This document shows positions 1 through 64,000 of a DNA stretch of 64,000 nucleotides, in pieces. Every line of letters starts with the position of its first letter. The first letter of the stretch is position 1. The notes under the pieces were generated by a model. That model saw only the letters and a program-made list of their open reading frames with translations, was not told where the DNA came from and searched no databases. Location of the stretch: positions 32,001 through 96,000 of the IMG/VR virus record IMGVR_UViG_3300029967_000162; one strand, written 5' to 3'. The position numbers and the translations under genes are program-made. This stretch comes from a virus (lineage: Duplodnaviria; Caudoviricetes).

Positions 1-633
1 ACTAAGCCTGATGATCAAGAGATAGATTCAAGTGCATTGTTGGTGATGGATGGGCCAGTCAATGACCAAAAGTTGATGGGAATGATAAACTACTATGGGT
101 ATTCAAAGATTTGCAAAGATCTAATGTATTTGATATACCAATTATGATCTCCAACAGAAAGAAATGCATATGTTGCAGAATCTATCACAAAGTTGAAGAA
201 TGAAATCAAGTGGGAATACTATTATAACAAAGAACTTTCAGACAATGATTTGTGGAGGTTGTTCAAGACAACAAGCATACATGAGTTCATTGAAAGGTGC
301 AAAGATGCAATCAACAAAATTCCATTCGTATCTAATGAAGAGTTAGCTGCAATGCTGGATTCATGCCACAATCTTAGAAATTATGAAAGATTAAAGCATC
401 ATCCAGATGAGTTCAGAAAAGTGCTTAGAACAAAGAGCTTAGATTATCTTGAGAAATATCAGAAGAAAATGTTACATGTCATGAAACTATGCAGAGAGAT
501 GTGTGAACATTATGCATTGAGACATGCAAAGGGCATTGGGTTAGTTGGCTCAAGGTCTTCAACAAATAGTTCCTTTCTTTTTGAAAGAATTGATGAAGGG
601 ATAGAGAAAGAAAGGATAGAAAACAAAGACTAA
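1..633 (+). CDS. C-terminal part (5'-truncated by window edge) of HExxH-family paralog
   Basis: Frame open from base 1 if TGA145 = Trp; LIYQL*SPTERNAYVAES aligns with LMYQIWSPTERNAYVAES of the next gene; shares KSLDYL.KYQKKMLHVMKLCREM. Confidence 0.85.
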
Positions 634-639
634 GAAGAC

Positions 640-1722
640 ATGGAAATCATAAACGAGAAGAAGTCTGTAGCGGCAACTTTGTTCTGGTCAGATATACAGA
701 GAATCATAGACTACATGCAGGCACATGGAAAGAACAAGCCTGTTGGAACAATCATTAAAGTCCCTGAAGAGATTTGTTTTACTCTGCTTGGGAAGTATTT
801 TGAAAATCTCAAGATAAGCTTAGAGATATCTAAAGAGATTGTATACAATGGAGAAACCTCTCCATTAGATGGCACCCAATATAATTGGGTTTCATATGAG
901 GAAGAAAGAACAAAAGAGCCTGACAAAGCATTAGAGTTTCCAGATAAGCTCAAAGACATATCAATTAAGATAAAAGCTTTCAGAGACCTGAGCCATGATG
1001 GTCTTGAGCTAGTCTTAGTGCATGAAATCAACCATCTGTGAGAGACATACAACAGAGCAAATGTTGAGATGCAGAAGCCAGAAGATGAAGTCGATGAGAC
1101 TTCTATGCTTGTCATGAATGGTCCAATAGACTTGAAGCTACTATTAAATGCACAGCAACTTCCTTGGATTTCAAAGAGATGCAAAGACATGCTAGGCTTG
1201 ATGTATCAGATATGGTCGCCGACAGAAAGGAATGCATATGTTGCAGAGTCTATCTCTATCCTAAGAAGAGAGATACCTTGGCATGAATATGAAAAGAAGA
1301 CTATATCCGATGAAGAGCTACTGAAGATGTTCACTACAACTAGCGTATACAGTTTCATACAAAAATCAAAGACCTTCATAGATGAAGACATTGAGAAACT
1401 CACAGAAAGAGAGCTAGAAGTCATCTTGTCTGTTTGTGTGTGCTTCAAGAATCCAAAGTCATTGCTTAAGTCTCCGGAGAAATTAAAAAAGATTCTAAAG
1501 ACAAAGAGCTTAGACTATCTTGACAAATATCAAAAGAAGATGTTGCATGTTATGAAGCTATGCAGAGAGATGACAGAGAATTTCATGGTCAGGCACTTAA
1601 AAACAAAGGGGTTGCTTGGATTGACACTTGCAACAGAAAGGCACTTCTTGTTTGAGAAGATTGATGAAGAGATAGAGAAAGAAAAGATAAAGATAGAAGA
1701 CAAGAAGGCATGGAGACTATAA
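640..1722 (+). CDS. Putative zincin-like (HExxH) protein, 360 aa
   Basis: ORFs 640..1041 and 1069..1722 are in frame, joined by TGA1039 (VHEINHL*ETY vs IHELNHLWTTY in paralog 15760..16743); downstream ExxA motif. Confidence 0.75.
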
Positions 1723-2903
1723 GTGAAAAGATAAACTGAACATCTCCAGAAGTCACAAGATTAGTTGAAGAGATTAGAGAAGTCTGCTTCAAGGATGATG
1801 TGCACACTGATTGCTCAAAGAACCGAATCAAGCATTTTAAAGTGCATCATCTAAATCTCTATGAGCAAATCAAAAAACAGTTTCCTGAAGTCACAAAGCC
1901 GGCTGAGGTAGTTTGATGGTGAGAGTTCTATGTGAAAGGCTTGCACAAGTGCAGTGCATGTGGAAAGATGCTTGAATACGGCAGAGGGGACCATCACTAC
2001 ACCTGATGTGATGAGTTCAAGTTCACACCATTCTGCTCTATAGAGTGCTCAAGGTCTGAGAAAGGCAATGCTTGTAGGATGGAGAAGACAAACAAGGCTT
2101 TCAAAGAGAAGTATGGCTGCACATTTGGTGGCCAGTATGCTGGAAATGAAGAGTTGAGGAGAAAGCAGAGAGAAAGCTTGAAGAGTCACTTTGGTGAGGA
2201 TGTTGAGAACCCAAGCCAGGCACAAGCAGTGAAAGACAAGAAAGTCAAGACATGCACAGAGCACTATGGTGGATATGGGTATGGAAGTGAAGAGCTGAGG
2301 AGGAGAGCTGAAGCAACATATAAGCAGAAGACTGGGTATAAGAATGCACAGCAAAATCCAGTGGTGAAAGCAAAGACTAAGCAAACAAACATTGAGAGAT
2401 ATGGCACAATCCTTCCAGCAAATGCAAAGCAATGGGACAACTATAGAAAAGAGTGGCTTTGGAAGTCTTGAGATACAAAGAGAGCAAACGGCACATTTGC
2501 ATCATCTAAGATCCAAGATGAAGTTGAGGAGTACTTAAAAGAAAAGTTTGGGAAAGTTGAGCATGAGTGGAATAAAGACAAGAGATATCCATGGCATTGT
2601 GACTTCTATGTTCCGAGCTTAGATCTATTCATAGAAGTGCAAGGGATGTGGACACATGGAAAGCATCCATTTGATATCACTAACAAAGAAGACTTAGCTT
2701 TACTTGAAATGTTGCAGGAGAAATCAAAGACTTCGAAGTTCTATCAAAATGCTGTTGATGTTTGATCTATTCGAGATGTAGAGAAAAGAAAGAAAGCAAT
2801 AGAAGAGAATCTCAACTTCTTTGAGTATTTTGGAAATGATTTTGAAGATTTCAAGTTACTCTTTGAAGACTATCTAAAAAACAAGAAGATGGAAGTGAAA
2901 TAA
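1710..2903 (+). CDS. Intact Zn-ribbon / repeat-array / PD-(D/E)XK endonuclease (free-standing homing endonuclease-like), 397 aa
   Basis: Single frame from ATG1710 to TAA2903 with six TGA read as Trp; CxxC...FCSxEC Zn ribbon, ~5 KxTxxERYG-type repeats, C-terminal YPWHCDFYVPSLDLFIEVQGMWTHGKHP nuclease motif. Confidence 0.8.
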
Positions 2904-2916
2904 CTTCCATCTTCTT
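2884..2916. terminator. Bidirectional intrinsic terminator-like hairpin
   Basis: AAGAAGATGGAAGT-gaaata-ACTTCCATCTTCTT between convergent genes. Confidence 0.7.
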
Positions 2917-2936: not shown

Positions 2937-3542
2937 TTAAAGGGACACCTCATCTCAAAAATCCGCGCGGTATGTCATCTGAGCCGTCCAAAGATTGTCA
3001 TTGCCATAGTCAAAATCACCAAACCCAATGTTAGTAGTTGGGAATATGTTGTAGAATATCCACTGCATGAATGGGTTGCCTACCCTGTCATGGCGGGTCA
3101 CTGTCATGCTTGGTGCTACATAGTCCTTCTTGAGGCCCATCCTGCCAGTGAGTGGATCATAGATCAAGTCATTCCATGCACGCAAGAAGTTGTATGTGTA
3201 GTTGGATGGTGTGTCAGAAGTGTACCGAAGGTTGAGCTGCCAATTGATTTGGAGATCAACAGTAGTAGATGGCTGCGCACCTGCAAAGCTACGAACTGCA
3301 AACTTGTATTTCTGCTCTTTCACACTTCCAGAGCTCTTTGCGGTGTCAATGCCACTTACACTCTGTGCACCTTCAAGGATGACAAGCACTTCTTCATCAG
3401 AGGAAGACAGCCCAAGGCCAGTTGGAGGGTCCAGCTGGATCGTGAACATGTTTCCATATATAGGCTCATACAAGGATGTAGAGACACGTGAGCTACGGTA
3501 GTTGCTGAGTCCCAACAGTCCTTTTGACTTTTGTTCTGCCAT
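2937..3542 (-). CDS. Tail tube protein (T4 gp19-like)
   Basis: WNDLIYDPLTG...DY...FPT motifs; extends through TGA to YRADF(W)DEVSL-TAA, matching the aromatic/acidic gp19 C-terminus. Confidence 0.85.
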
Positions 3543-4383: not shown

Positions 4384-5232
4384 ATGGCTAAGAAGAAGTA
4401 CAATGTAGAGTCAATCCTTGAGGAAGTCTCCTCTGAAGACATACTCCAAGATGGGGAAGTCAACCTCAACTCATTCATATTGAAAGACGAGCTCTGCCCA
4501 GAGATTTGGCATGAAGGAAAGCTTGACAAGAGAATCCTCTCGCAGCTCGAGAAAGTCGCAAATGACTTCTTTGAGAAGCTTGACCTTGGGGACATACTCC
4601 CAGAGCTCTCTGAAGAAGAGATCCAGACTAAGCTCAGAGACATATACTTTATAGGGAGCCTTGCCTCTTACAACTGGTCTAAGTACTCCGACATTGACTT
4701 GCATCTTGTGATGGACTTCACAGAGCTTGCAGATGAGCATGACATGCCTCTCCTCAAGAAGTACTTCACTGCTTGCAAGAATGAGTGGAATCTTGCACAC
4801 CCTGACTTGAAAGTCCTTGGCTATGAAGTTGAAGTCTATGTCCAAGACATCAATGAAGAGAATGCGGCAAATGGCATCTACAGTGTGATGGATGATGAGT
4901 GGGTCAAAGAGCCAGAGACGATGGTCGAAGCAAACCTTGACAAGAGCCTTGTGCTGAAGAAAGTCAAGGACATCATGGTGCAAGTCGACATGCTTGAGAG
5001 ATTGGTAGAAGGTGCCCAGACTAAAGACTCGCTTGCATTGCCTTCTGAGTTTGCAAGCTCACTCTGGTCAAAGATCGTGCTCTCTAGGAGAGAGTCGCTT
5101 GCAGCCGGCCTTGGTGAGATGAACACGGACAACATCATCTTCAAGTGCTTGCGCAGGCTTGGCTACCTTGAGAAGCTCAAGAAGCTCAAGAACAAGATCT
5201 ATGACTTAGAGAACAGCACTGAGAGAGACTAA
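4384..5232 (+). CDS. Pol-beta superfamily nucleotidyltransferase
   Basis: GS...DxD signature (IGSLASYNWSKYSDIDLH) and a later EVEVYVQD acidic strand. Confidence 0.75.
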   Translation: MAKKKYNVESILEEVSSEDILQDGEVNLNSFILKDELCPEIWHEGKLDKRILSQLEKVANDFFEKLDLGDILPELSEEEIQTKLRDIYFIGSLASYNWSKYSDIDLHLVMDFTELADEHDMPLLKKYFTACKNEWNLAHPDLKVLGYEVEVYVQDINEENAANGIYSVMDDEWVKEPETMVEANLDKSLVLKKVKDIMVQVDMLERLVEGAQTKDSLALPSEFASSLWSKIVLSRRESLAAGLGEMNTDNIIFKCLRRLGYLEKLKKLKNKIYDLENSTERD

Positions 5233-5237
5233 GAGCT

Positions 5238-5810
5238 CTACAGCACCCCTAATGAGTGGAGGGTCTTCTCTGTGATGATGACAAACTCACAACCCCTCTC
5301 ATTCACATACTTCTTGGCGGCGTTCCACTTTGCGACATTCACTAAGTAAGTGTTTGCCTCATTGATGTATCTTCGGTGGTCTTTGAGCTTTGCACCTTGC
5401 TGGAGCGGCTTTGGGGCTTGTGTCTGAGCATAAGGCTTCACTTCACCGAACACTTTCTTCACTGTGCCATCTTGCTGCTTCACTTCCCACCAGAAGTCTA
5501 GGTAATATGTAGCTGGTGCAAAGTTGTGTGGGTCATTTGGATCTAAGCCTTGAGCCCTGCACTTAGTGAGGTTCTTGACTGGGTTGAGGTATGGTATGCC
5601 TATAGGCTCTGATGCTCACCGCACTATAGATGGAGACCGGTCAAGCCAAGACATGAAGGCATACTCTCATGATGACCGATACTCATTCACTCTAGAGATG
5701 CACTTCTCTGGATGGAGGGAAGGGATGAAGTACCCTTGCTTGTATCGAGTCTTGGACTCATCTAGTATTGGTGCATTCCTCTTCTTGTATGCAGCTAGGC
5801 TGCTTGCCAT
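5238..5810 (-). CDS. Head completion nuclease (T4 gp4-like, TnsA-like fold)
   Basis: YRSS*EYAFMSWLDRSPSIVR*ASEPIGIPY...YYLDFW...EVKP...NVAKWNAA...IITE; both TGAs fall at the conserved gp4 Trp positions. Confidence 0.9.
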
Positions 5811-8024: not shown

Positions 8025-8690
8025 ATGATACTCAATGGCAAGCATAGTAATGGAATCACAAAGATAGGAAACCTCATTGAGTGGTTCCACCAACTTGCTG
8101 TGTGCTGCCAAGTCTCTGATGAAGAAGCCCAGAGCTGATGCGCTTCAACTGTAGAGGTTGATGGCTTGACTTATGTGAACCTCAACAAGATGAAGTATAG
8201 TCTGTCATTGCCTTCATGGAGTGATTTGTTTGATGTTGCACCAAGTGTGAGGTTTGGCTATGTGCCTTCTGTGAGGTTCTACAGTGTGCCTTCTTCTGAC
8301 AAGCTTGTGCCGATGTGCTGCAACAACATCTTGATAGAAGACAACTTTGTGAAGGACTTAGGTCTTCTCTCAAAGCTCTACATTGCAAAGAATGGAAGCC
8401 CAACACAGTCTGTGCACATCATTGCAAACAAGCTCACAGACTTCTCATTCCTTGGCAGCTTCTTTGCAACATATGAGAGAGATGAAAAGCCAAGGCTCAC
8501 TCTCAAGATCATTGACTATGCAGATGTTCCAGATGAGCAGCTCAGGAAGATCGCACGGTGCACAGCAAAAGTGAACTGCACATTGCTAGTTGCAATGGAA
8601 GACAATGTGTGGTCTAAGCTCCTCAAGCTCTGTGAGGAAGAAGGATGCAACATGAAGTGCATCCACTCAATATCGACAGGCAAAGCCTAA
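8025..8690 (+). CDS. Hypothetical protein
   Basis: ORF 8166..8690 extends upstream through one TGA to ATG8025; contains a short PSVRFxxV tandem duplication. Confidence 0.65.
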
Positions 8691-8782: not shown

Positions 8783-9817
8783 ATGAGCAACAACCCAATG
8801 GACATCTTCAATGTTGTCCCGACAATCCAAGATGCACAGGTGAACAAAGTCTCTGATGAGTTCCATCCTAGTCCGAAGAACTCTAAGAATGGAGTCTATG
8901 AAGCTGTGGTTAGGTTCCTCCCGAACCCAGATGATCCAGCAAACAAGTCTGTGCTCAGGAAGAATGTAGCATTCTTGACGAATCCAATCACAAATGAGAG
9001 CAAGCTTGTAGACTGCCCTTCGACTGTGGGCAAGCCTGACCCGATAGTGAACACCTTCTTCACATTGAGGAAGTCTAACTCCGCTGTCAAGCAGGAGCAA
9101 AGCAAGATGTTCAGCCGTAGGCAGAGGTATGCAAGCTTGGTCCAGGTGCTGAAGTGCACGACAAATCCAGACCTTGAGAACAGAATCCTCATCTGGAACT
9201 ACGGCATCAAGATCTATCAGAAGCTCCAGAATGAGATGGCACCCGCAATCGGTGATCCTCGCAACCCGTTCGATGTGCTGAATGGCCGTGCATTCCTTGT
9301 TAAAGTGAAGGAAGTAGGCGGGTTCAGCAACTATGATGACTGCCAGTTTGTCGATGTCGACAAGAGTGTGAGTGCATTCAGGATTGAGACTTCTAAGGGA
9401 TTCATCCCTGTGACCCAGGAGCTCATTGCATCAGAGAAGGGCAGGAATGCAATCGTCACATATCTCAAGGAGCACATGCCTGACACGACACCTTATGAGT
9501 ACCATGAATGGGATGAGCAGACTGAGCAGTTTGTGTCTCAGGTCATCAAGATGTACATAGATCCAAACTATGTGCCTAGCTCTGCAACTTCTGCTCCAGC
9601 ACAAGGACCTGCAGCGACTCCGACTATTGGCAGCTTGACACCTAGTGCTGACATAGTGTCAAGCGCTCCTAAGCAGCAGAGCTCTGGCTCTCTTGACCTT
9701 GACAGCCTTGGGATTGGCAATGTCGCAGAAGTAGTCAACCAGAGCAATGTAGCTCCTGCACCTCAGCCGAGCACTGAGATGCCGGATCTGTCTGACATCC
9801 TCTCGAACATCCTCTAA
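8783..9817 (+). CDS. Single-stranded DNA-binding protein (T4 gp32-like)
   Basis: AVVRFLP, DCPSTVG, NPFD..GRAF.VKVK.V.GFSNYDD motifs; acidic low-complexity tail. Confidence 0.9.
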   Translation: MSNNPMDIFNVVPTIQDAQVNKVSDEFHPSPKNSKNGVYEAVVRFLPNPDDPANKSVLRKNVAFLTNPITNESKLVDCPSTVGKPDPIVNTFFTLRKSNSAVKQEQSKMFSRRQRYASLVQVLKCTTNPDLENRILIWNYGIKIYQKLQNEMAPAIGDPRNPFDVLNGRAFLVKVKEVGGFSNYDDCQFVDVDKSVSAFRIETSKGFIPVTQELIASEKGRNAIVTYLKEHMPDTTPYEYHEWDEQTEQFVSQVIKMYIDPNYVPSSATSAPAQGPAATPTIGSLTPSADIVSSAPKQQSSGSLDLDSLGIGNVAEVVNQSNVAPAPQPSTEMPDLSDILSNIL

Positions 9818-9910: not shown

Positions 9911-11020
9911 ATGGAAGCAACAAATGACATGTTCAATGTGAGCATCAATGCTCTGCAAGACACCAATGTCTCAATAGAAGACACAAAGGAAGAGCTTGCA
10001 GACAGAGTGAGCATGATACTCAAGAGAGAGTTCCCGCACAACATGCAGAAGCAGAGAGTGAAAGTGACTCGAGAGAGCCTCAACTTTGCATGCCCATACT
10101 GTGGAGACTCTGCAATAGATGACTCTCGCAAGCGTGGGTACCTCACATTCGCTGGCAAGTGGGCAGGACACTACAAGTGCTACAACTGTGGCAAGCACAC
10201 ATCAGTGCTTAGGTTCTTCAAAGACTTCAATGAAGAGCCAAGCTTGGCAGCTGTGGCATTGCTTGCAGATGTGTCTTCAAACTCTGCACAGAGGATGCAA
10301 AGCAGTACAAGAGCATTCAATGGATTTGACAGAGAAGAAATCAAGAAGTATGGAGTTGAAAAGATCAAGCTTGCGGCATTGCTGAGGGCATTTCCAATAG
10401 ATGATCCTATCAGTGCGCCATGCAAGGCATATCTCATTAAGAGGAGGCAGCTTGACCTCTCAAAGTTCATGTACATCCCATCACTCAAGTGGCTTGTCAT
10501 CTTGAACTTTGCAGATGACATTGTCATTGGTATGCAGCTCAGAGACTTGACCGGCCAACGACAAGCGCGATACAATACTTTCAATCTGTCAAGAATCCAC
10601 TCAAGCATATTGAGAAATCATGTTGAGGTCCCAACTAAGCTTGATGAGTCATCTCTCATCTACAACTTGTACAGCATTGACTGGAACAAGCCAGTCATCG
10701 TGACTGAAGGGCCGCTCGACTCATTCTTAGTGCCAAATGGCATTGCGACAGCTGGAGCAAACAAGCATGTGAGCTTGCCAATGAAGCTCTGGTGGCTCTT
10801 TGACAATGATGAGACTGGAAGGAAGCATGCAATCGAGAAGCTCAACAACAATGAGCAGGTGTTCATGTGGGACAAGCTCATGAGAGACTTAGGTCTGCCA
10901 CAGCGCAAGAAGTGGGATGTGAATGATGTTGTGATGTGGATGCACCTGAATGGAATCAACAAGAAGGTAGACTGGCTGAGCTACTTCAGTGATGACCCAT
11001 TCGACATGCTCTCTATCTAA
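9911..11020 (+). CDS. DNA primase (T4 gp61-like)
   Basis: Zn finger NFACPYCGDS...YKCYNCG; TOPRIM motifs VTEGPLDSF, FDND, WDVND. Confidence 0.92.
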   Translation: MEATNDMFNVSINALQDTNVSIEDTKEELADRVSMILKREFPHNMQKQRVKVTRESLNFACPYCGDSAIDDSRKRGYLTFAGKWAGHYKCYNCGKHTSVLRFFKDFNEEPSLAAVALLADVSSNSAQRMQSSTRAFNGFDREEIKKYGVEKIKLAALLRAFPIDDPISAPCKAYLIKRRQLDLSKFMYIPSLKWLVILNFADDIVIGMQLRDLTGQRQARYNTFNLSRIHSSILRNHVEVPTKLDESSLIYNLYSIDWNKPVIVTEGPLDSFLVPNGIATAGANKHVSLPMKLWWLFDNDETGRKHAIEKLNNNEQVFMWDKLMRDLGLPQRKKWDVNDVVMWMHLNGINKKVDWLSYFSDDPFDMLSI

Positions 11021-11740: not shown

Positions 11741-13813
11741 TTATTCACTTGGTATCTTCCAGTTGTATGTCGACCCATCTACAGTCAGCCAGCCATCTGC
11801 ATATGTCGCTCATGTCGGTGTAGAGTCTGCACCGACACCAATGTAGAATGTTGATGTGTCTGTCACCTCAGATCATTTGTATCCAGCTCCTCATGCTGCC
11901 CACCACCAGTCTGTCTCTTGTGCATTACCACTCTCATCTACATAGTTTGGATTCAGATACTGGAAGAATGGTGTGCTTCCAGAGTCAAGAATCTCCATCT
12001 TTGAAGAGTCAAGTATGAATGTGATCTCACCAACTGAAGTATCTAAGAGAGTGACTTTAGTTGTCTTCCCACCTTGAGCTGTCAATGGAGCAACTTCAAT
12101 GACTTTGTTTTGACAATACCAATCAATATAGAGCCAAGCAGGAGCAAGAGGCTCTTCAGATGCACGATTGTCTCATGACTCAATGCCTTTCTTGTTGCCA
12201 ATGTAGAAGATGTTCTCTTGCTTGTTCTTGGAGGTAGAGATGTTGATCTTTGCAATGACTTGAGGTGGCTCAACTGCCCACACCGAAACATCATTCGCCC
12301 AGTCATATCTCAAGAACTTGCTCATGTGATAGCTCTGCATTTCTTGGTATCCATCCAAGACATTGATAGTTGTTGATATTTGGTAGAGTGAGCCACAAGT
12401 GAATGTCACTGGCACAATGTCATAAGTGTCATGAGAGTGCATCTTGATTCTGACAATGCAAGCTGGATCTTCTTCTGTGCTGCCAGAATCTGTGAGAGCT
12501 TCACTTATGTCATATGTGATTGACTCTATGCTGACCAAAGTCTCATCAATTGAGACGTCAACTGTCTGCCACTCATTCCACGGCCAGATGTTGAGAGAGA
12601 TCTCAAACTCTTCATCTGCAATGACAGACTTGCCAGTCTCTAAGTTGAATGAAGCAACCCACCAGCTCTCAGCATCTGCCATGTCTTGGAGCGTCCAGCC
12701 TTCTGGCACACCAGAAGCAGAGTTAAGTGGGAACAAGTCTTTTGAAGCAGCTGGCAGCTTGTAGAGTGTGCCAGAAGTCGAGACATCTACAAGCCAAGCA
12801 TTGATGGCAGCATTGCTTTCATCTTGTGTTGGAGCAGTCGTCTGTGTTGTCACGACACGTGAAAGGCTAGTGCAGCCACTGAACATGCTGTTAAATGCAT
12901 GCTCAGCCGGAGCTGAGACATTTAGACGCTGTGTAGCTGTGAGTGAGGTGCAGCCACTGAACATCCTCTCACAGCCATAAGATGCAACTGAAGTCGCAGA
13001 CATTGCTGGCATCGCCCTCAAGCTTGTGCAGCCTTCAAACATGCTGCTATATGCATTCTCTGGAACATCTGTTGCAGAGAGAGACTTTGGTGGTGTTGTG
13101 AGTGAGGTGCAGCCTTCAAACATGCTTTGCATCGAGCCATGTCCGAGTGTTGTTGCAGCAATGCTAGGGCCTTTCACCAAGCTTGTGCAGTCTTTGAACA
13201 TCCCGGCATAAGTGTGCTTTGCAAGAGCAGCATCAGAGAGCTTTGGCACACTTGTGAGTGAAGAGCATCCATCGAACATGTGCCAAAATGCACCAACTGA
13301 AGCATCAGCTGGCACTTCAATCGACAGCTTTGATGCTGATGCCAACCCAGTGTCACCACCAAAGAGCCATGCATAGCGATACTCATCAGTGCTTGACAGC
13401 ACTCCATCTGCATATGCAGCTGACAGAGGTCCAGACACAGAGTGCTTGCTCTTAGAGTTGATCTTCCAAGCCACATTGTCTTTCTGTGTCGTTGCACTTG
13501 TCTTGCTTGTGAACTGCAAGCATGCAGACTTCCCTTCAGCAATAGTGATTGAAGTTGATGTGCTCTCTTCCCATGTCGTGCCACTGTCATAGGACACTTT
13601 GTATGCAAGAGATGGAAGCTGTGCAGGGTCATCTGCAACGCTCACAAAAGACAGAGTCATCTCACCGGTGTCCTCATTAGTGATCTTGAACCATGAGCCT
13701 GTGTCTTCTGGCCAGATTTGCACGTCATTCCAAAAGATTGCCTTCAATGGCAAGCCATTGTATGTGCCAGTTGCTGTGTTGCTGACTTGTATGTCACCTA
13801 TCTTGAGAGCCAT
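11741..13813 (-). CDS. BspA/DUF285-like leucine-rich-repeat surface or virion protein, 690 aa
   Basis: Repeated MF(E/S/D/K)(G/D)C(T/S)SL units of ~24 aa; ORFs 12173..13813 and 11891..12085 join through TGAs and end at TAA11741. Confidence 0.75.
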
Positions 13814-51901: not shown

Positions 51902-52912
51902 ATGAAAATGAAGTTCATTCTAGGTGCTGCTGTTGCAGCATTCATGGTGGCAGTTGGATGCACTAAAGAGAATGTCCAGCTTGCTCCTGCACAGGAGATA
52001 ACAATGTCTCCTTACTACACTACAAGTGTTGCTACAAAGGCAGATGATAACGAGCATTCGTTTGCAACTACTGAGACCTTTGTCACTAAAGTGTACTATG
52101 ATGACAGCAAAGATGAAAATGGTGTCTATGTGCCAGAGTCTGTAGTGAAGTACACAGATCAATGGAGAGCTTATAATAATGAAGATGTTATGATGCACTA
52201 CTATTGGCCAGTTGATGGAAAGAAGCTGACTTTCTACTCTTACTACCCAGCAAGCTTGAAGTCTCAAGAGAATGCTCCTAAAGCTTGGATTACTAGCGTT
52301 GGTGTCAATGCAGAGTTCACTTCTCGTCCAGAAGTAGACTTCATGGTTGCTGACACGCAATGTGGCCAGACTGCTAATAGTTCTAATGACAACTACACAG
52401 GTGTTCCAACGATCTTCCGGCATGCTCTTGCTAAGATTGAGACTGTGCATTTGAAGTTGCAGGGTGCGCCATATAATAGTTTGTCATACAAAGTCATGTA
52501 TGTGAAGTTGACAGGCTTGAAGAATGGCACTTATACACAATCTGGTGAATCACATTGGAAATTGTCTGAAAATGATGAATATTCTGAAAATGATGGATAT
52601 AGTGAATTTCTTTATAATAATAAAGATGGCTTAGAGATCAACAAAAAGGATGGCGGTAGCTTCAATGTTAATAAGTTCTTCATACCTGGAAACAACTTCA
52701 ACATCACAGTTGGCTTCGAAGTTACTGGCTCTAACAACATAGTGCAAAAATTTGAGAAGACAGCAAGTGTTGAAAACCTTAGTATGCAAGAGAACTACAA
52801 CTACACCTTGAACATCACTAGAGGAAGTGATAACGACAAGCCGGTGAATGAGATCCTCTGGGCACCTTCTGTGAAAGATTGGATTGATGATACAATCAGT
52901 GTCACACTTTAG
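51902..52912 (+). CDS. Fimbrillin-like (type V pilin) lipoprotein
   Basis: Lipobox AVGC, TKA processing motif, YYWP..LTFYSYYP, FRHALAKI, C-terminal strand SVKDW. Confidence 0.82.
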   Translation: MKMKFILGAAVAAFMVAVGCTKENVQLAPAQEITMSPYYTTSVATKADDNEHSFATTETFVTKVYYDDSKDENGVYVPESVVKYTDQWRAYNNEDVMMHYYWPVDGKKLTFYSYYPASLKSQENAPKAWITSVGVNAEFTSRPEVDFMVADTQCGQTANSSNDNYTGVPTIFRHALAKIETVHLKLQGAPYNSLSYKVMYVKLTGLKNGTYTQSGESHWKLSENDEYSENDGYSEFLYNNKDGLEINKKDGGSFNVNKFFIPGNNFNITVGFEVTGSNNIVQKFEKTASVENLSMQENYNYTLNITRGSDNDKPVNEILWAPSVKDWIDDTISVTL

Positions 52913-52916
52913 ATTC

Positions 52917-54416
52917 ATGTCTCTCAAGTGGGTCGCCGCACTAGCAGTGACCCTTGTTGTCTTTGGGTGCTCTAAAGATGATGGCACTGCATATGATGCT
53001 CCCACACAACCATCTACATTGCCATTGCTCAGCTCATGGCAGGCCTCAACAAAAGCTGACAACGCACAAGATGAGCAAGCTTCTGCAGACACAGTTGCCC
53101 TTGATCACTCAAAGGCCTTCTACATGACCGCTCTGACAACTGATGATAGGAAACTCTGGTCATCATCAGATGCACAAGTCAGCTACGCAGAAGGCATTGG
53201 GTGGCATTCAGGATGATATTGGCCAGCAGAGCTAGACAGAGAGCTTGAGATTTGGACATATCCAACAAAGATGTGGACAGCTATAGACACAACTGCAAAG
53301 ACAGTCTCTGTCGCTCTAGATGGCAAAGATGACTTGATCTTCACAGCCACCCCATCTTATAGCAAAGGTCCAAACCCAGTGAATGTGAAGTTCATCCACT
53401 CTCTTGCAGGTGTGACTGTAAGCAGCAACATCAAGAACCCAAACACAAAGCAGAAGATGGCATGGGCAGAGCAGATCACTGCAAGCTACATGAACACTTC
53501 TGGCATCTGGGACTTCACCAACCAAAGATGGACTTCTCTGGATGGAAAGCAAGCAGAGGATGCAAAAGTAGGCTCTGTCTTCTATGTCACTCCTGGGCAG
53601 ACTATTAGCTTGCACCTTGAGAAGCTGCATGTCATCAACAACAATGATGAAGATGCTGCACAGATCCTTGACTATGACCTCAAGACACCTGTAGAAGTCA
53701 AAGAAGGTATGATGCATGAAGTTGTCATCAACATGAGTGAAGCTGAAGAGTGGGTTGACTTAGGCCTGCCTTCTGGCACGCTCTGGGGTACAAAGAACAT
53801 CGGTGCATGCAAGCCAGAGATGTATGGCAACTTCTACAGGTGGGCAAACTTGAAACAGCGAATGAAAGGAGACTCAAACACTTCAGACCCAGAAGCAAGC
53901 CAACGGCAGAGCAATGGAGAGATGCAAGACACCTATGACATTGCATACCAGATTCTAAAAGGTGAAGGAGAGACCCCAACTTACACTCAAGTTGAAGAGC
54001 TCAAGAAGTGGTGCAAGTGGGAGTGGATGGAAGAAGGCAACACTGAGTTCAGCGGAGTGCCAGGATTCAAGATCTATGCTTCTGGCTACTATAACACAGA
54101 CAGCAAGAGCACTTTCATCTTCATTCCTGCAAATGGCTACTATGATGACAATGGCTGGATGATAGACTACAACACTTATCAATACAAAGGCAGCACTTCA
54201 GAGCAAGGAGTGAAGTCTACAAGGAAGGGATCATACTGGACTTCTACCTACAACAATGGCACTCCACACACTCTCAACTTTGGTGCAGGATGGGAGACAA
54301 TGCCAGACAATGAATACCAGACTGGGCAGACCCCACATGCTCTTGGCATCAGGCCGGTGAAAGTACAGAAGATCTCTGGCCGTAACCCTAACCCAACCAG
54401 GAGCAACCAATGGTAG
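52917..54416 (+). CDS. Fimbrillin-like lipoprotein with C-terminal adhesin domain (tip pilin-like), 499 aa
   Basis: Lipobox VFGC, TKA, *YWP, FIHSLA; C-terminal WVDLGLPSGTLWGTKNIGA...YWTS...IRPV domain; joined via TGA53214. Confidence 0.78.
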
Positions 54417-54599
54417 CTCTCTAACTGCTTAGTATCCACCAGGACATCTTTTCCTGGCATAAACATGTCCCAACAAGAAAAGGTTTCTCATGGAAAATTG
54501 TCCTAAGAAACCTTTTTAATTGTCTCATATTCATTTGCTTAAACCGATTAAAATCAGAGTTGCCTCTATATAAATCATGTAAACAAACACAGAGACAAC

Positions 54600-54995
54600 A
54601 TGAGACACACATTCACTTCTATCATCGCTGCGATCGCAATTGCATTCTCTACCATCAGCTGCTCTGCTGAGAGATATGACATCGAACCAATGCCTGCAGA
54701 AGAAAGCCCTGCTTATGTGATGTACAAAGCAGTGTCTGCAGACTCTACCGACATCATGGAGATCTCAACTCTCACTTCTGTAGGTGTAGCAGACTTCAAG
54801 AGCACTGCCGAGTTTGAAGCAATCATAGGACCAGTGGATGCAAACACATTTGAGCCTTCAATCGAAGCAGTCTCTCAGAAAGATGCGGAGATCAAGATCT
54901 CTATCTACATCAGTGAGGACCTTGAGAGCTGGAAGCATGTCGGTGGCACGACAGGAGAAGCATATGCTGAAGTAGTGACAAAGATCTCTGAATAG
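54600..54995 (+). CDS. Small lipoprotein
   Basis: Signal peptide ending TISC. Confidence 0.65.
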   Translation: MRHTFTSIIAAIAIAFSTISCSAERYDIEPMPAEESPAYVMYKAVSADSTDIMEISTLTSVGVADFKSTAEFEAIIGPVDANTFEPSIEAVSQKDAEIKISIYISEDLESWKHVGGTTGEAYAEVVTKISE

Positions 54996-55183
54996 AAGGA
55001 AGACAATCTCATGTTGCCTAGATATGATTGATGTTAGGCATTGAGGTGTCGTATAAAGCTCAATACACAAGATTTTGGTTCTTGCAATCAGGGTTGGATT
55101 CCCTGCACCTCAACCAAGCATTGATCAAAGTTTTTTCCTATGCACTTGCTACATTAGCAGGTGCATTTTTAGCAAAGAAAGCC

Positions 55184-55414
55184 ATGTGCTTCAAGAAGAA
55201 AGACAAGACATATGTTGAAGTTGTAGGAGAGCATTGGCTAGATGAGACAAAGATGCTCTCATACAAAGAGTTCATTGCATGCAAGCACCCTTCTGAGATA
55301 AAGCTTTGCAAGCTCTATGAAAGTTTTGACGAGCTTGAGAAGACAAAGCAAGACCACAAGCATAGAATCTTTGATTTGATTCAGAAGTTCATTGATAAAG
55401 ATTACGGGATGTAG
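55184..55414 (+). CDS. Small hypothetical protein
   Basis: ORF whose stop codon overlaps the 5' end of tRNA-Pro. Confidence 0.45.
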   Translation: MCFKKKDKTYVEVVGEHWLDETKMLSYKEFIACKHPSEIKLCKLYESFDELEKTKQDHKHRIFDLIQKFIDKDYGM

Positions 55415-55555
55415 TTCAGTTGGCCAGAACGCTGGTTTTGGGATACAGAATGATTTACTGTGACAAATCAACATTGTAGTCAAGACGTGAGGTTGAAGAT
55501 CGAATCTTCCTACAATGTCAACCAGAGGTCGCGCGTTCGAGTCGCGCCATCCCGA
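55405..55555 (+). tRNA. tRNA-Pro(UGG) interrupted by a 77-nt insertion after position 37
   Basis: CGGGATG/CATCCCG acceptor; CTGGT-TTTGGG[77 nt]A-ACCAG anticodon arm; GCGCG-TTCGAGT-CGCGC T arm. Confidence 0.88.
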
Positions 55556-55904: not shown

Positions 55905-58466
55905 CTATTCAGTGTTCTTTGGTATGTAGTTCGTATGGAACACTATGTCCTCAAGCATCTTCCACATTGTCGTGAGAGAAGCATCTATCCTGTCAGTCAA
56001 GCCCTCAAGTGAGTTGATTGATATGTTCATCACTTTTATAGAGCTGTCAGTTGCATCAGCAAAGTCAAACAGAGTGCTCAAGTTCTTTGAGTGCGTGGCA
56101 ACCTTTGTGCTCAAGTCTTTGAATGAGTCTGAGCCCATGATTGCATTCTCAAGGTTCACGACAAAGTTCTGTATGTAAGCGATGATGTAAGGAATCAGCT
56201 TCTCATAGTTGATGTTAGCAGTCTTGATGTCTGACCCATAGAGCACGCTTGTGTCTTGGCTCTCTACCAAGTATGTCAAGTCAACGCCATTTCATGAGCT
56301 GTCACCACCCCATGAAGAGCTGTTCAACGCTGGGCTGTCTGGGTCGACATAGAACTCAAGGATCCTGTCAGAAGAGTTCTGCACAGTGCCATCTTCAGCG
56401 ATGTACTTGTACTCAACATTCTTGGTTGACATCAGTATGTTGATGCCCGCATAGTAGAGTGGTGTCTGGCTTGCCTCAGTAGTCTGCCCACTTGGGTCTG
56501 ACACACTCACCATGTGCTCTTGCACGTCAAATATGGTTGAGAGGATTCTGCCAGCTTCTTCAGTCAAGGCACCTTCTTCATTCAAGAGAGTAGAGAATGC
56601 AGAAGCATCATCATAGTACTTGGTGACCTTGACATATGAGTCTATCTTGTTGAGAGTCGACACATCAAGATGGTCAATGTGCACCCCACTTGAGTCAAAG
56701 ATTGCCACTGTCTTGTACTCTACATCTTTGTATGCATATGCTTCAGTGTCATAAGTGTCAACTGCATCTGGCACCTGTATCAGCAAGACAGAGTCATCTA
56801 GTGTCTTGCCTGGCCTGATTGTAGAAGCATTCAGCACAGCTGTCGTGAGCACTGCTGCACGATCACCTGCCACATAAGATGCAAGAGCTGTGCTCAAGTC
56901 CTTCACCTGTGTAGCATAAGTGTCATATGCATTCACTACCTGTGCATAAGAGCTCTGGATGTTCTTTGTCGTGACGACATTGGTGTTCATCGCATCCACT
57001 GCTTGGCTCAAGCTGCTCAAGATGCCAGCGAAGTCAGAAGTGAGGAGTGAAGTCGTAGTCGTGTTGTCATTGACTTCAGAGTCGGTGTCGTCATAGACAG
57101 AGTTCGTCTTCACGTTCACACGGAATGCATAGCCAGTGCCAAACCCATTTGCATTGCTCATCTTCTTGGTGAGTGGTGGGATGCAGAATGAAGTCTGCTC
57201 TCCAGTCTCATCTCCAGACATGTCTTCAGGGGCATCCAAGAAGAGCACGCCAAACAAGTTGGTAGCTACAGGCACCTTAGTCGAGTTGGTCGTGTCATAG
57301 ACAGAGTAGTAGAGCAAGATGGCATTGAAGTCGAACTGGTCATCAGGAGCGAATGCATCTGGGGCCTTCACGTTCACGTCATCATAGCTGTTCACAATGT
57401 GCGTCACACCAGGCTCAAGCTTGTCCCAGATTGCAGCGATGTCGTTCACATCCTTCACAATCTCTACCCCATCAAGGTTAGATCTCCTGAAAGTGAATGT
57501 GCTGTCACCCTTGTATGTGATGTCATAGTTGATTGGGTCACTCTTGTCCCACTTCTGAGTTATGTATGCTCCACCAGTCTTCACATAGCTGAGCATGCTG
57601 CTCCACCAGAAAGCGTCATCGTCACCAGACCCATCGCTTGCACTCCATGAAGGAGTGTACTCGTCAAACGTGTCGGCGTAGTCAGACCATGGCACGTTGA
57701 CTGTGTATGTGTTCACGACATTCTCTGCTTCAGACTCACGGCCTTGCAGAGTAGAAGGGTTGTCATAGATGTATGCCTTGCCAAGCACATAGTTAGTCTC
57801 ACCATCGTCATCTTTCACCCTGAAGTAGACTTTGCCACCACCATAAGAAGTCGGCACAGCGACATAAGTCTCATTGAACATGCCAAACTCTGTAGACCGA
57901 GAGTTCCCAGCATCTATGGCCCCAAAGCACCTCACGACTTTCTGGTAGCCTGTGCGGTTGCCTACAGCCTCTATGCTGGTAGAGACATCCTGATCCTCCT
58001 CAAAGATCTCTCCACACCTTGTCGTCTTGATGTTGTCATCCTTCCACCTGATGGCACCAGTCTCCTTGAGTCACTTCCAGAAGACACGCTCAGACACAGT
58101 CTGCAAGTCTTGGTAGTTGTACTCATCTTGGTTCATCAAGAGGGTCTCAAAGTTCATCGCATAGTTCTGGAGAGATGCAGCGATGTGCCATGATGGAGAG
58201 TAGTCCAAGCCACCTTGCCCAGCTACATATGCAAACTCACCTGGTATGAGAGTTGGGTTGAAGAAGTTGACTGCCAAGTTCTTCTTGGTTGCAAGCTCTG
58301 TGTTGCTCTCTGGTATGTTGAGGAGAGCATAGTGTGAGAGGCACACTGTGTTGGCTCTTGCATTGAGGTTGAGCCCTATGTCTTCAGAAGCCGATGGGAA
58401 CACATAGAGGGTCCCACCTTGGCTCCTTGGTTGGTTGATGATTGGTGTCTTGTTCTGACTAGCCAT
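55905..58466 (-). CDS. Large virion structural (tail/baseplate-like) protein, 853 aa
   Basis: Three ORFs in frame via TGA58071 and TGA56292; late INYEKLIPYIIAYIQ resembles the intramolecular-chaperone helix of fibre proteins; ATAAATA upstream. Confidence 0.65.
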
Positions 58467-58561
58467 ATGACAAAATTCAAAAATACACCATATTTATGCT
58501 CAAAAGCCAAGCCGGCCACAAAAGCGGCATAAATATCAAAATCAAAAGGTTGGAACGGCAC

Positions 58562-59911
58562 ATGCCTACAAAAGTCATAGACAAGAAGCTATTTGAAGAG
58601 CGCAATATTGACAACAACTTCCCAAGAGAGGTGATACTCGGCCTCTTGAGGATCCTCAACCAGCAGATATCATATGAGCAGATTTGGGAAGACACTTCTG
58701 TTGGCAGAGAGAGGATCAATGTGCCATTCTTGTTTGACTTTGGTGAGGCATACAACTCCGAGAAGTTCATCCAAGACAACTACATCTTCTTTGGAAGCGA
58801 CTGCACTACTGCTGGGCTCACCAAGATGCCTGGCAACTTTGACTTCTACCCTAGAGGAGTAGTGTCCCTCAAGTCGATTGCCATAGACTCTGGATCTATC
58901 ACAAACAGGTATGTCATGGGCAGGTTCCAAAAGAAGATAGGGCCTCAGGTCAAGTCATATGTCTCTTGGCTCTACTCTCTGCCACTCAACATGTCATTCA
59001 GCCTTGAAGTTCGTGCAGACACTTTCAACACAGCACTCAAGATAGACTCTGCATTCAGAGAGTTCTTCTACAAGAACAAGACATACTACATCAACTACCA
59101 TGGGTCTAGAGTGCCATGCCGATGTGGCTTTGCAGAGCAGCTTGCACTTGACAAAGGCTCAACATACACAATGGGCACTTATGACTCTGACAGATACTTC
59201 AAGCTCACTATGGACTTGAGTGTAGAGACATACCAGCCAGTGTATGACCCGACTGCAGAGATGCCAGCTGATGCATCTGCAAGATGGGGCCTCTCTCTGA
59301 ACGTCAATCCAGGCACTCAGCATGAGAAGAAGATCTGGTTCACAAATGACTTGACAAACACCCTCATCACAGCTGGTGAAGACACAGTGATAGAGTGAGA
59401 CTGAGACTTCAACCGGTCAGACATGCTCCATGTGCAGCTCTCTTACATAGATGCTTCATCTGGTGATGAAGTAGAGATCGCTGCAGTGCAGAACCACAAC
59501 TTCTATGACTGGGCAGTGCCTGAAGAGCTCTCAGCAATGGAGAAGCTAGAAGTGGTCGTGCCAAACACAGATGAGCTCAGCGTCTATGAGCAACCTCAGC
59601 TCAGGATTGTCCCAGACTTGTCCACGATGGTCGTGAGGCCATCAGATGTAGTTGTGCTCAACAAAGGATACTTTGTCACAAAGCAGAGCAAAGTCGATGG
59701 TTGGATTGACTACACTAGAGACAAAGATGGAGGATTAGAAGAGATTCCGGTCAAGTTGAACTTGGCAAATGGGCAGATTGACTTGAGCAATCCAATAGAG
59801 TTTGAGCCATTTGTGTACTTGAACAAAGTCAAGAAGAAAGAGATCACAGTCAAGCTTGTCGATGTCACGAATGGAAAGGAATACACGATGAGCCCTGTCT
59901 ATGTCGTGTAG
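58562..59911 (+). CDS. Tail terminator/sheath stabiliser (T4 gp15-like) with C-terminal extension, 449 aa
   Basis: INVPF, YPRG, SLPLNMSFSL motifs; joined through IE*D*DF. Confidence 0.65.
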
Positions 59912-59929: not shown

Positions 59930-60400
59930 AAATTTTCGGGAGGGCCTGTCAGTCTCTAGAAGAAAAGAAGAGTCTTCCAGTCAGTCTCTCTCATACTCTC
60001 TCTGCTAAGCCTACTAGATCTGTCTAGTTTAGTTAAAGTTTTAACTAGATCTAGTTAAAACTTTAGCTAAAGTTAAAGTCTTAACTAGATCTAGTCTAGT
60101 TAAGACTTTAACTAGATCCTTCACCGACCTTGTCCCAGACAAGAATTGTATCGACTTCAGGGCGGAATGTCTACAAAATTTTGTTAAAGTTTTGTTAAAG
60201 TTTTGTTAAATTTTTGTTTCAATTTTGTTACAAAATTATTTCAAAGATATTCAGCACTTCTAATCCAACTTAAACCTTCAAGCTCTTTCATGAAATGCCC
60301 TAGGAATGCGACATTTAGTCCAAGTGGGCGGCTAAGCACAAGGATGATTAACTAATCAAAAGTTTGATTTTGATGGTTTGCCGCTTCCTGGCACAAACTT
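59930..60400 (+). repeat. Dispersed palindromic/iteron-like intergenic element, copy B
   Basis: Inverted copy of 27931-28400. Confidence 0.92.
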
Positions 60401-61370: not shown

Positions 61371-61476
61371 GAAGGCATCTATCAACTTCATGATATTGAG
61401 AGACACTCTTTGTAGGGTGTCTCTCTTTGGATTTGCCAGGAGCTCACAGATTGATAAATACCTAAATTGGTAAAAT

Positions 61477-61746
61477 ATGCAACTTAGTATGCCAAAGATC
61501 CATAGCATGAACCATCTTGATGAGCTAGAGCGGCACTGCCATGACTACTACCCAAACCTTGGATATGACTATGAGAAGAATGGCATACTCAAGAATGTCG
61601 TGTCACAAGAGCTGTTTGGCAACCCACTCAATGACTCTGCAATGCACCAGATTGAGCGGCTTGTCACATTCTTGGTGAACCAAGTCAAGAGGATAAAGCT
61701 GCAGTTCACATTTGCTCTTGACAAAGACTCAAAGCTGCTCAACTAG
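61477..61746 (+). CDS. Hypothetical (probably baseplate-associated) protein
   Basis: ATAAATA upstream; first gene of a putative late operon. Confidence 0.6.
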   Translation: MQLSMPKIHSMNHLDELERHCHDYYPNLGYDYEKNGILKNVVSQELFGNPLNDSAMHQIERLVTFLVNQVKRIKLQFTFALDKDSKLLN

Positions 61747-61753
61747 TTCAGAG

Positions 61754-64000
61754 ATGGAGATCAACAACACATTCATAGACTCATCTGTGCTGTTTGCAGA
61801 CTACTCAAAGCTGAGGTTCTTCAATGACTTTGGCTATGAGGTGTATGTGCAGACAGTGTATGACTTGACTTGGAGCATAACCACAAAAGCAAGGCACCCG
61901 TTCAACATATCTTCACTTCCATCTGGATACATCATCAGCGACATAAGCTGCACCAACTATGAGATGTTCTCTGGCATGATAGACATGGGAGCTCTCACTG
62001 TGAAAGTCGCGACATTCCCCGGAAGCATATCAGTCTCTGATGTGGCAAAGTACATAGACACAGATGCATCAGTCGGCTCTACATATGAAGATACAGATGA
62101 TGCAGGCAGGCTTGCAATCAGAGAGGCATATGTCACGAAGTACTTCAACCGTGCAATCAGCAAGCTTGAGGTGTCATACACTGGTGAGCATGCAAAAGCT
62201 AGGACATACAAGCTAGACATCTGGCCATATGTGAAGGGCCACCTCACTCTCAGGATGAAGGAGAAGTCATTCAACACAGAGAGTTTCAATGACCCATCTG
62301 CAGGCTATACAGTGCCAGACTGGCAAGAGTACACATTCTCACATGCAGAGTGTGACAGCTCATTCTATGAGACCCTCAACGCTGTGCTTGGCTCATTCCT
62401 CTATGGGAATGTCGACAGCAGTGTGCTTGACACTTCATTTGGTACACCAGTCGTGAAGCTAGAGAGAGCTGCTAGCTTGTGGCCATACTTCTCATTGAAT
62501 GGTGTCTTCAACCAAGAGAAAGTGTCTGCTGGCCTTGTGGCCGCCAACACAATCTATGCGCTCTATGATGACTTCGGCTCTGCCCCAGACTGAGGCAAGC
62601 ATAGCTTCAGCACACCATGGACAGAGTCAGGCTGCTCACTCATGCTTGGCACGACAGAAGACCATGAGCTCAGGTATGTGTCGAATGCACATGACGTAGA
62701 TGCTGTGACATGGTCAGACACCTACATGATAGGGCTCAGTGAGAGAGTCGACAACTCTGATGACCCTGACAAGGAAGACAAGCCGATCTCATTCTCTATA
62801 GGCGTCCTTGCTGATGAGGAGGGAGTGTACCAGAACCACATAGTGCTGTATGTAGTTGGGCCGACTGATGACCTCTACATCATCGGCACGATAGCTGTCA
62901 ACACAGAGGTGGTAGGAGAAGATGAGCGCTACAGGACGGTGTTCACCAACTTCGGGGTGCCAGACCCAGTCACATATCCATTCCTCTTCAAGGAGCATGA
63001 CCCAGACCAAGAGTCAGTAGACTGACAACTTGTGAATGAGAAGAGCAAGCAGCTCTTCTTGAGCTATGACCAGATCTTCCCATATGCTGGCACTTACAAG
63101 GCACTGATGAACGCTGTAGAGTGGCTTGGCTACACTGACATCTACTTCAAGGAATGGTACAAGGTCATAGACCCAGACAAGAGCTCTAGAGTCGTGCTTT
63201 GGCAGTCAGTCGACCTAGAGAACAAGAAGACCATAGAGAGCAAGCTCAAGAGGGTGAACGTGAGCATTGATGACTTCATCAACTACAAGAAGCTCAACAA
63301 GCTCTCAATGATATACCTCATCAACTCTGAGAGTGAAGGCTATGACACACAGCCGACTTACACCTATGACAGCTGTGAGTATGTAGGGAAAGGTCCGACC
63401 AAGGTGTTTGACATACCTTACACAGACCCTAACTATGACTACAACTCAGATGCTCTGCTTGCCAAGCTCTGGTCACTGAAGAGGTGGCTTGAAAAGCACA
63501 TCCTTGGCGTGAGCTGCCACATAGTCGACGTGACTGGTGAGGGTGTCTACTTCTACAGAGACAAGAGCGTAGCATACCAGACTGGAGACTACTTGCTTGA
63601 CTACAGCAAAGCTGCTCCACTCACACCATTCAATGCACGAGTGTCAGTGTCTGACAACCAGATGGTAGAGAGCTCTGCGCTTGTCAGGTGCTCAATGCAC
63701 GAGTTTGAGGAGCTCAGGTTCAGAGACTACAAGGAGAATGCAATATCAGAGTTCAATGACAAGATCTATGACTCTTCCAATGCAGTGACTTGGACAGACC
63801 CAGACACCCTTGCCAAGTATGATGCATCTACATATGCCATGAGTGTGCTCAGTGAGGATGGCAACTACGACTTCAAGAAGCTCGATGAGGCAATAGATGC
63901 ATCAGTGATGGTGAGCAACCCACTTGCTGCTCCAGTCTTGATGCAAGAGTTCTCCTACAACTTGGAGCTCGACACATCATGCGGCACTCTCTATGAGGCT
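61754..64000 (+). CDS. Large baseplate-like structural protein (3'-truncated by window edge)
   Basis: Frame open to the window end via TGA62591 and TGA63023; GTYKALMNAVEWLGY resembles wedge-protein motifs. Confidence 0.65.

Follow-up and report, generated by a model that had tools for sequence, protein, structure and literature searches.

Bacteria that use genetic code 4 natively (Mycoplasma, Spiroplasma and some insect endosymbionts) have lost release factor 2 (RF2) from the cell and carry a tRNA-Trp with a UCA anticodon. Phages with this code were reportedly described by Ivanova et al. in 2014. Recoding of TGA to tryptophan in gut phages of standard-code hosts has been published (Borges 2022, preprint 10.1101/2021.08.26.457843), the code-4 gut phages being the Jade, Sapphire and Agate clades and some crAss-like phages (10.1101/2021.08.26.457843), and among 7,295 genomes of huge phages 32 were assigned code 4 and 155 code 15 (10.1101/2025.02.27.640493). 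The Lak megaphages, with genomes of ~476-660 kb (PMC6784885, PMC8346664, PMC11165621), read TAG as Gln in all described members (PMC8346664, PMC11165621); they carry a tRNA(CUA) and RF2, the main clades have a GC content of ~26%, and they infect Prevotella (PMC8346664). Here we analyse a stretch of 64,000 nucleotides (the window), bases 32001-96000 of the 134,147-bp linear IMG/VR virus record IMGVR_UViG_3300029967_000162 (contig G000). Its source is a very large, incompletely assembled, gut-type tailed phage that is distantly related to the Lak megaphages of Prevotella and very probably uses code 4, with UGA read as tryptophan and TAA and TAG as the sole terminators; its host and its means of suppressing UGA are inferred.

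Coding density and terminators

As raw coverage by open reading frames (ORFs) rises whichever stop codon is removed and hence does not discriminate between codes, genes were called instead with a codon log-odds model trained on table-11 ORFs of at least 300 amino acids (aa), non-overlapping genes being selected by dynamic programming under each code (this caller is our own and crude, and is not Prodigal). The comparison, which a sequence-only reading of the window had suggested as a check, gave coding densities for contig and window of 80.0% and 78.6% under the standard code 11, 87.1% and 87.2% with TGA as sense (code 4), 76.5% and 75.1% with TAG as sense (code 15) and 79.3% and 78.3% with TAA as sense, so that density increased only with TGA as sense and decreased in the other two cases. 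The gain on the 134-kb contig is of the size at which an alternative code is assigned under a published rule (at least 5%; 10.1101/2025.02.27.640493). Going from code 11 to code 4 reduced the number of genes on the contig from 156 to 121 and increased their mean length from 229 to 322 aa. The JGI gene calls show the effect of code 11, under which roughly one gene in four is split or cut short, the terminase, tail sheath, tail tube and head closure genes among them. When TGA is sense, TAA terminates 69 of the 121 genes and TAG the remaining 52, in agreement with what the sequence-only reading had reported for the genes it traced, and no gene needs TGA as its terminator. The 103 in-frame stop codons are all TGA, with no TAA and no TAG. 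Recoding of TAG is thus absent from the contig, as there is no in-frame TAG, TAG is a regular terminator and code 15 lowers the density. Upstream of the first TGA of a gene and downstream of its last, the coding model gives scores of ~0.15-0.25, like those of in-frame coding sequence (the in-frame mean is 0.19 +/- 0.10 and the off-frame mean -0.21).

Two further contigs, G006 (48.7 kb; IMGVR_UViG_3300017492_000126) and G008 (43.8 kb), were located through a 39-bp inverted-repeat site and contig-end patterns, as was G007 from another sample, and come from the same JGI sample as G000 (3300017492). G006 overlaps the left end of G000 over 240 bp at 99% identity, and G008 and G000 have a repeat element of ~250 bp in common; on these links both are probably parts of the same phage, giving ~226 kb in all in three contigs from one sample. 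In G006 and G008, likewise, density increased only under code 4. Neither two repeat-element patterns nor a scan of metagenome contigs brought in further contigs of this genome, and CheckV puts the completeness of the 134-kb contig at 24%. As the source is a metagenomic assembly, and as no public sequencing run (nor any RNA data set) was listed for the tail-sheath region, the TGA codons might be assembly or sequencing errors, or mark decaying pseudogenes, but this is scarcely credible: the 103 sites are all TGA, on W columns and with the frame kept, the essential genes for the large terminase (TerL) and the tail sheath are among those affected, and G007, which is 99.87% identical to 18.6 kb of G008, has kept 19 out of 19 in-frame TGA codons, which argues against assembly error.

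Residues found at TGA positions

The claim that essential genes are completed by read-through could be examined gene by gene (coordinates in Table 1). Homologs of 690-700 aa cover 94-98% of the read-through TerL and reach 56% identity to it, and in an alignment of 120 homologs TGA365 corresponds to W in 120/120, TGA276 to Y, W or V and TGA540 to Y, F or W. The tail sheath and tail-tube columns were scored against 80 related IMG/VR loci: in the sheath, TGA228 is W in 52/52 and TGA301 in 50/50, with coding scores of 0.25 ahead of these codons and 0.31 beyond them; in the tail-tube-like protein TGA187 is W in 19/19 loci and F in 2 others. TerL and the sheath reach the length of their homologs only when TGA is read through. 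For the gp4-like gene, where TGA had been placed at conserved Trp sites, a full-library phmmer search gave 1,536 matches, and among the best 150 representatives of these TGA48 is W in 100 and TGA65 in 130. The claim therefore stands for the terminase, the tail sheath and the gp4-like gene, but a fourth gene that had been labelled 'gp15-like' has no PHROG or Pfam match to support the label. In the anaerobic ribonucleotide reductase NrdD the single TGA (TGA383) lies on a W column. Among the larger proteins of unknown function, TGA132 of the 853-aa protein is W in a relative (coding score 0.23 before and 0.25 after its TGA codons), the two sites of the 471-aa protein align in relatives with W and Y, that of the 652-aa protein with F or G, and in the 1737-aa protein TGA424 is W and TGA1195 and TGA1606 are F or Y.

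A pool of homologous columns, built by tblastn to related loci together with five related IMG/VR records, covered 45 TGA sites. The majority residue was W at 17 of these, F at 7 and Y at 4 (aromatic at 28/45), well above chance given that W makes up ~1.5% of residues generally; 272 TGG sites taken as a control gave the same spectrum (W 119, Y 58, F 29). A BLOSUM62 likelihood over the TGA sites placed Trp first, leading Tyr by 23, Cys by 60 and Gly by 70 ln units. An alternative is translation of TGA as Gly (code 25, with a host among the Absconditabacteria or Gracilibacteria) or as a different residue such as Cys or selenocysteine. Phages with code 25 are known (10.1101/2021.08.26.457843) and the frames that it opens are those of code 4, but we regard this alternative as having close to no chance of being correct: the weighted Gly count in the TGA columns is 0.3 of 45, code 25 is rejected by the likelihood and the paralogous codons are TGG rather than GGN.

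The paralogs on the contig agree with the homologs. All ten motifs quoted in the sequence-only reading were found in their places, the six positions written as stops being TGA and the four paralogous partner positions TGG. In the trio of paralogous genes TGA 145-147 is paired with TGG 1213-1215 and TGA 1039-1041 with TGG 16165-16167, and alignments of the DUF7487 paralogs also place TGA opposite TGG. When the contig proteins were compared all against all with TGA written as X, TGA was found opposite W 18 times, opposite TGA 12, C 6, F 5 and G 0, counts that are inflated by repeated high-scoring segment pairs.

Distribution and codon context of TGA

In-frame TGA is a minority codon (103 TGA and 566 TGG on G000, or 15% of Trp codons; 64 and 327 in the window, where 29 of 60 genes bear TGA), making up ~12-15% of Trp codons overall at a frequency of ~1 per 380 codons. 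It is scattered over structural, nucleotide-metabolism, mobile-element and unknown-function genes. The number of TGA-free genes (67/121) is close to that in a uniform binomial simulation (mean 63, P = 0.23), and the mild heterogeneity among genes (P = 0.03) comes from the DUF7487 and HNH-type nucleases, where TGA accounts for about half of the codons for Trp. A partition of the early/late type, with TGA in structural and lysis genes and none in early genes, was not seen on G000; among code-4 phages such a partition is a tendency and not a defining property. A clean division into standard-code early and recoded late genes finds no support here, as NrdD has TGA and the major capsid, prohead protease and baseplate wedge genes have none, the last two showing that late genes can lack TGA; the absence of TGA from the single-stranded DNA-binding protein (SSB) and primase genes is not significant alone since the two have only 11 TGG codons between them. 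In G008 a block of 27 kb (bases 16600-43776) has 0 TGA among 113 Trp codons; it encodes a gp23-like major capsid protein, two Eco57I-type methylases, a Mom-like protein and a 978-aa lysozyme-domain protein. TGA may be avoided in some highly expressed genes.

The base following TGA is G in 54% of cases and that following TGG in 23%. A special TGA-G context as a mechanism was rejected because a genome-wide codon-pair rule explains the excess: TTA and TTG are followed by G in 73% and 13% of cases, and all NNA and NNG codons in 49% and 15%. By obeying this rule TGA behaves as the A-ending synonym of TGG. More generally, across G000, G006 and G008 codons ending in A, T, G and C are followed by G in 49%, 64%, 15% and 7% of cases, and the synonymous choice between TTA and TTG or between AAA and AAG depends on the next base. 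Column statistics (W as the best fit, with Gly nearly absent), coding density, coding potential and codon-pair behaviour thus all bear out the proposal of the sequence-only reading that TGA is read as Trp.

Relationship to the Lak megaphages

The best named relatives of TerL are those of the Prevotella Lak megaphages (43-44% identity, E ~1e-146), the next phage group being at 27%. Relatives in viral contigs were retrieved with an alignment of homologs as the query, a pattern from TerL alone having given none. A quick maximum-likelihood tree placed the window TerL with P0001, P0002, P0003 and P0005 (support 95) and put all the TAG-recoded sequences, Lak A, B and C among them, in a clade of their own (support 99); the two were united in one larger clade (support 100), so that the phage TerL does not fall inside the Lak clade. 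The neighbourhood of P0001, the one of the four neighbours that was examined, has long uninterrupted table-11 genes and looks standard-coded, and the Lak TerL genes show 14-16 in-frame stops in tblastn. Among the IMG/VR relatives examined, G001, G002 and G004 look standard-coded and G003, G005 and L009 have in-frame TAG (G003 and G005 gaining ORF coverage with TAG as sense), and none has in-frame TGA. From this tree topology the recoding of TGA here is a separate event beside the TAG-recoded lineage. One related record is complete at 164 kb.

Decoding of UGA and the host

The host is probably a standard-code anaerobe of the Bacteroidota: the kinship to Lak, a Bacteroidota-type fimbrillin gene and the disuse of Shine-Dalgarno motifs make this phylum plausible, and NrdD, an anaerobic enzyme, suggests that the host is an anaerobe. 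With such a host suppression would need to be phage-borne, and the phage would have to provide a suppressor that reads UGA while infection proceeds. The likeliest candidate is a tRNA-Trp whose anticodon is UCA, possibly helped by release factor 1 (RF1) or a tryptophanyl-tRNA synthetase (TrpRS) as in the published Jade phages, the gene or genes lying in the part of the genome that was not recovered.

Several observations weigh against code 4 in a standard-code host. Around 17 of the 45 pooled TGA sites align with non-aromatic residues, as TGG sites do at a similar rate. In up to ~8 genes TGA is near-terminal or is followed by a weakly coding tail, as at TerL codon 679, which stands two codons ahead of TAA in an unaligned tail and is ambiguous, in the tail of TnpB, and in the gene at 79775-80131 (window coordinates), where TGA is immediately followed by TAG. 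A tRNA with a UCA anticodon was found neither by ARAGORN, including at a very low threshold, nor with the Rfam tRNA model in G000, G006 or G008, and there is no tRNA-Trp in these ~226 kb; the RF-1 (PF00472) and PCRF (PF03462) domains are absent from G000 and PF00472 also from G006 and G008, and the class-Ib synthetase domain of TrpRS (PF00579) is absent from all three. The lack of a tRNA(UCA) and release factor noted earlier for the window accordingly extends to the whole 134-kb contig. Finally, the Bacteroidota promoter motif TAnnTTTG is not enriched (7 upstream of genes against 6.4 expected).

The near-terminal codons bear on whether TGA has a dual meaning, being Trp inside most genes yet a stop in some by timing or context, which we hold to be highly improbable. 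In a few genes TGA does lie 0-8 codons from TAA or TAG or precede a low-scoring tail, and the 27-kb block containing the major capsid gene is free of it, but the tail-tube TGA aligns with a conserved W despite standing only five codons from the stop, most tails beyond TGA score as coding and the terminators require no TGA; some residual use of TGA as a stop is conceivable.

The missing suppressor, release factor and TrpRS genes would be explained without any suppression if the host itself read UGA as Trp, being of the Mollicutes type or another code-4 bacterium. The spread of TGA close to the uniform model and its occurrence in NrdD would be in keeping with such a host, as would the disuse of Shine-Dalgarno motifs (the core motif precedes 9/121 genes, which is the random expectation) and a weak DUF285 'Mycoplasma' match that falls below the Pfam cut-off. 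However, for a phage of Mollicutes a genome of at least 226 kb would be large. Prevotella is the host of the nearest named relatives (PMC8346664), the fimbrillin is of Bacteroidota type, TGA remains a small fraction of Trp codons and is missing from the 27-kb block with its 113 Trp codons, and the related lineages are standard-coded or TAG-recoded, so that a host natively using code 4 seems very unlikely to us, if not strictly impossible. A search of prokaryote genome contigs with TnpB was uninformative, giving only a 27%-identical match in Spirochaetaceae.

A phage-supplied suppressor in a standard-code host remains the preferred explanation. Five ordinary tRNAs were called on G000 (Thr-UGU, Met-CAU, Gln-UUG, Ala-UGC and Leu-UAA), beside an interrupted tRNA-Pro-like gene; none of these reads UGA, and G006 and G008 have no tRNA of any kind. 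Related records have 16-38 tRNAs clustered in one region and the genome here is incomplete, so a tRNA(UCA) would most likely lie in the unrecovered sequence. A UGA suppressor tRNA is detectable in only 35% of published code-4 genomes (10.1101/2021.08.26.457843), and the accessory RF1 and TrpRS genes are not universal among code-4 phages. It is also possible, though unlikely, that this sister lineage of Lak recoded TGA to Trp independently and decodes UGA without a phage-borne tRNA, RF1 or TrpRS, for example by altering the tRNA-Trp or RF2 of the host or through an unusual tRNA-like gene of its own.

Other features of the window

By Pfam and PHROG matches the gene set of the window is of the T4-like myovirus type, and the phage has a GC content of 43.6%. 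The tRNA-Thr(UGU), called by both ARAGORN and Rfam (55.8 bits), has a length of 85 nt, a D stem of 3 bp and a long variable arm; such a class-II-like shape is not expected for a tRNA-Thr and the assignment is from the anticodon only. The insert of the tRNA-Pro-like gene falls short of the size of a group I intron and holds a stem and a T-arm-like hairpin. The tRNAs of recoded jumbo phages carry 'introns' that possibly encode another tRNA (2026 survey, PMC13037316); as a hidden UCA suppressor, however, the insert was rejected, no reading of the anticodon loop yielding UCA.

The IS607-like mobile element is itself dependent on TGA read-through. The DUF7487 family has arrays of ~23-aa tandem repeats and the highest share of TGA among Trp codons in the genome, ~50%. 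An intein splits the UvsX/RecA-like gene (Hint and intein-splicing domain matches). The fimbrillin gene, whose closest protein clusters in the Atlas are fimbrillins of Bacteroidota (score 0.98), is an unusual phage cargo and sits in a same-strand run of genes, one flanking member of which needs TGA read-through.

The four identical copies of the 39-bp site on G000 lie to the left of the window in alternating orientation, which is consistent with invertible segments; the assembly breaks at this site, through which G006 joins G000. The non-coding repeat element of ~230-250 bp has short internal direct and inverted repeats, and its copies (three on G000 and one on G008) are 94-99% identical. The right end of G000 lies outside the window inside a tandem repeat, where assembly probably stopped because of it, and the reverse strand there looks collagen-like (Gly-X-Y) by eye.

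Table 1. Features of the window and of the linked contigs. Positions are those of the window unless another contig is named; the in-frame TGA column gives positions or numbers of codons.
Feature	Position	Strand	In-frame TGA	Remarks
Large terminase TerL	45477-47522	+	46302-46304, 46569-46571, 47094-47096, 47511-47513	681 aa under code 4, 275 aa under code 11; Pfam Terminase_6N and PHROG TerL matches span the first TGA
Tail sheath	18266-22210	-	21437-21439, 21218-21220	~1284-1314 aa under code 4, 257 + 969 aa under code 11; PHROG 34521 and 23; Pfam Phage_sheath_1C
gp4-like head closure	5238-5810	-	5667-5669, 5616-5618	190 aa; PHROG 218 'head closure'
Tail-tube-like protein	2937-3515	-	2955-2957	192 aa; PHROG 32623 and 45 'tail tube'; TGA five codons before TAA
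IS607-like element	48390-50226	-		Transposase then TnpB
Serine-recombinase transposase of this element	49624-50226	-	1	PHROG 6620
TnpB of this element	48390-49601	-	2	Pfam OrfB_IS605 and Cas12f1-like_TNB and PHROG 506 matches, spanning TGA299
Second serine-recombinase TnpA (IS607/IS605-type)	30482-31102	+	None
Second TnpB (IS607/IS605-type)	40083-41345	+	None	Adjoined by a Y1 transposase (JGI gene calls)
Two paralogous genes	1-633 and 640-1722	+
Third paralog	15760-16743
DUF7487 repeat-nuclease family member	1560-2903	+	9	8 TGG; Pfam DUF7487
DUF7487 paralog	32706-33779		5	5 TGG
DUF7487 paralog	22226-22834		1
DUF7487 paralog	16933-17202		6	6 TGG
853-aa protein, unknown function	55905-58466	-	2	One frame under code 4
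471-aa protein, unknown function	58496-59911	+	Codons 301 and 303	300 + 162 aa under code 11
652-aa protein	24925-26883	-	1	164 + 461 aa under code 11
1737-aa gene, start	61754-64000	+	4, two inside the window	Extends past the window
gp32-like SSB	8783-9817	+	None
DNA primase	9911-11020	+	None
UvsX/RecA-like recombinase	42590-44251	+	None	Few Trp codons
Baseplate wedge subunit	28411-30333	-	None	640 aa; PHROG 219; late gene
Prohead protease	35180-36922		None	Peptidase_S77
Mfa-like fimbrillin	51908-52912	+		Pfam PF13149 (Mfa_like_1), E 2.6e-14
Gene run containing the fimbrillin	51018-54995	+
tRNA-Thr(UGU)	50349-50433	+		Not UGA-reading
tRNA-Thr(UGU) and tRNA-Met(CAU), region	50349-50527	+		Not UGA-reading
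tRNA-Gln(UUG)	55042-55116	+		Not UGA-reading
tRNA-Pro(UGG)-like	55405-55555	+		Rfam tRNA 53.4 bits; anticodon-loop insert of 77-80 nt
Repeat element of ~230-250 bp	28118-28346, 59983-60208; G000 12109-12359; G008 32777-33026			Non-coding
39-bp site	G000 9-47, 156-194, 4609-4647, 8493-8531; G006 69-107, 216-254
Tandem repeat at right end of G000	G000 ~133,950-134,147

Comparison with known systems

In practical terms, annotation of G000 and its sister contigs should use code 4. With this phage a lineage that recodes TGA stands beside the Lak megaphages, in which TAG is recoded throughout, and the results fit the published view that the meaning of stop codons flips repeatedly among related phages. 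The use of TGA departs from the early/late split proposed as the reason for recoding, and the finding of no decoding machinery in 226 kb is worth keeping; neither overturns current understanding. The phage resembles Lak in its T4-like myovirus type, in having a recoded stop codon and in its gut-type setting, and differs in that the recoding is TGA to Trp, TAG being a stop in 52/121 genes, in its higher GC content and in its position on a sister branch.

Compared with native code-4 bacteria, the phage likewise has UGA as Trp, but here this appears to be a viral property in a standard-code host, with UGA as a minority Trp codon. The likeness is greatest to the code-4 gut phages, with which it shares TGA at Trp columns of TerL and structural genes, an increase in density under code 4 only, TAA and TAG as terminators, a presumed standard-coded host, the lack of a detectable suppressor tRNA (as in 65% of published genomes) and TGA-rich homing-endonuclease-like genes, as in Agate phages, where a tendency to TGA was seen in a homing endonuclease (10.1101/2021.08.26.457843). 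It differs from them in adjoining the Lak lineage, in that TGA is not concentrated in structural and lysis modules and in that no operon of RF1, TrpRS and tRNA(UCA) was seen in its ~226 kb. With these differences, the phage is a further case of an established phenomenon, the recoding of TGA to tryptophan in phages.

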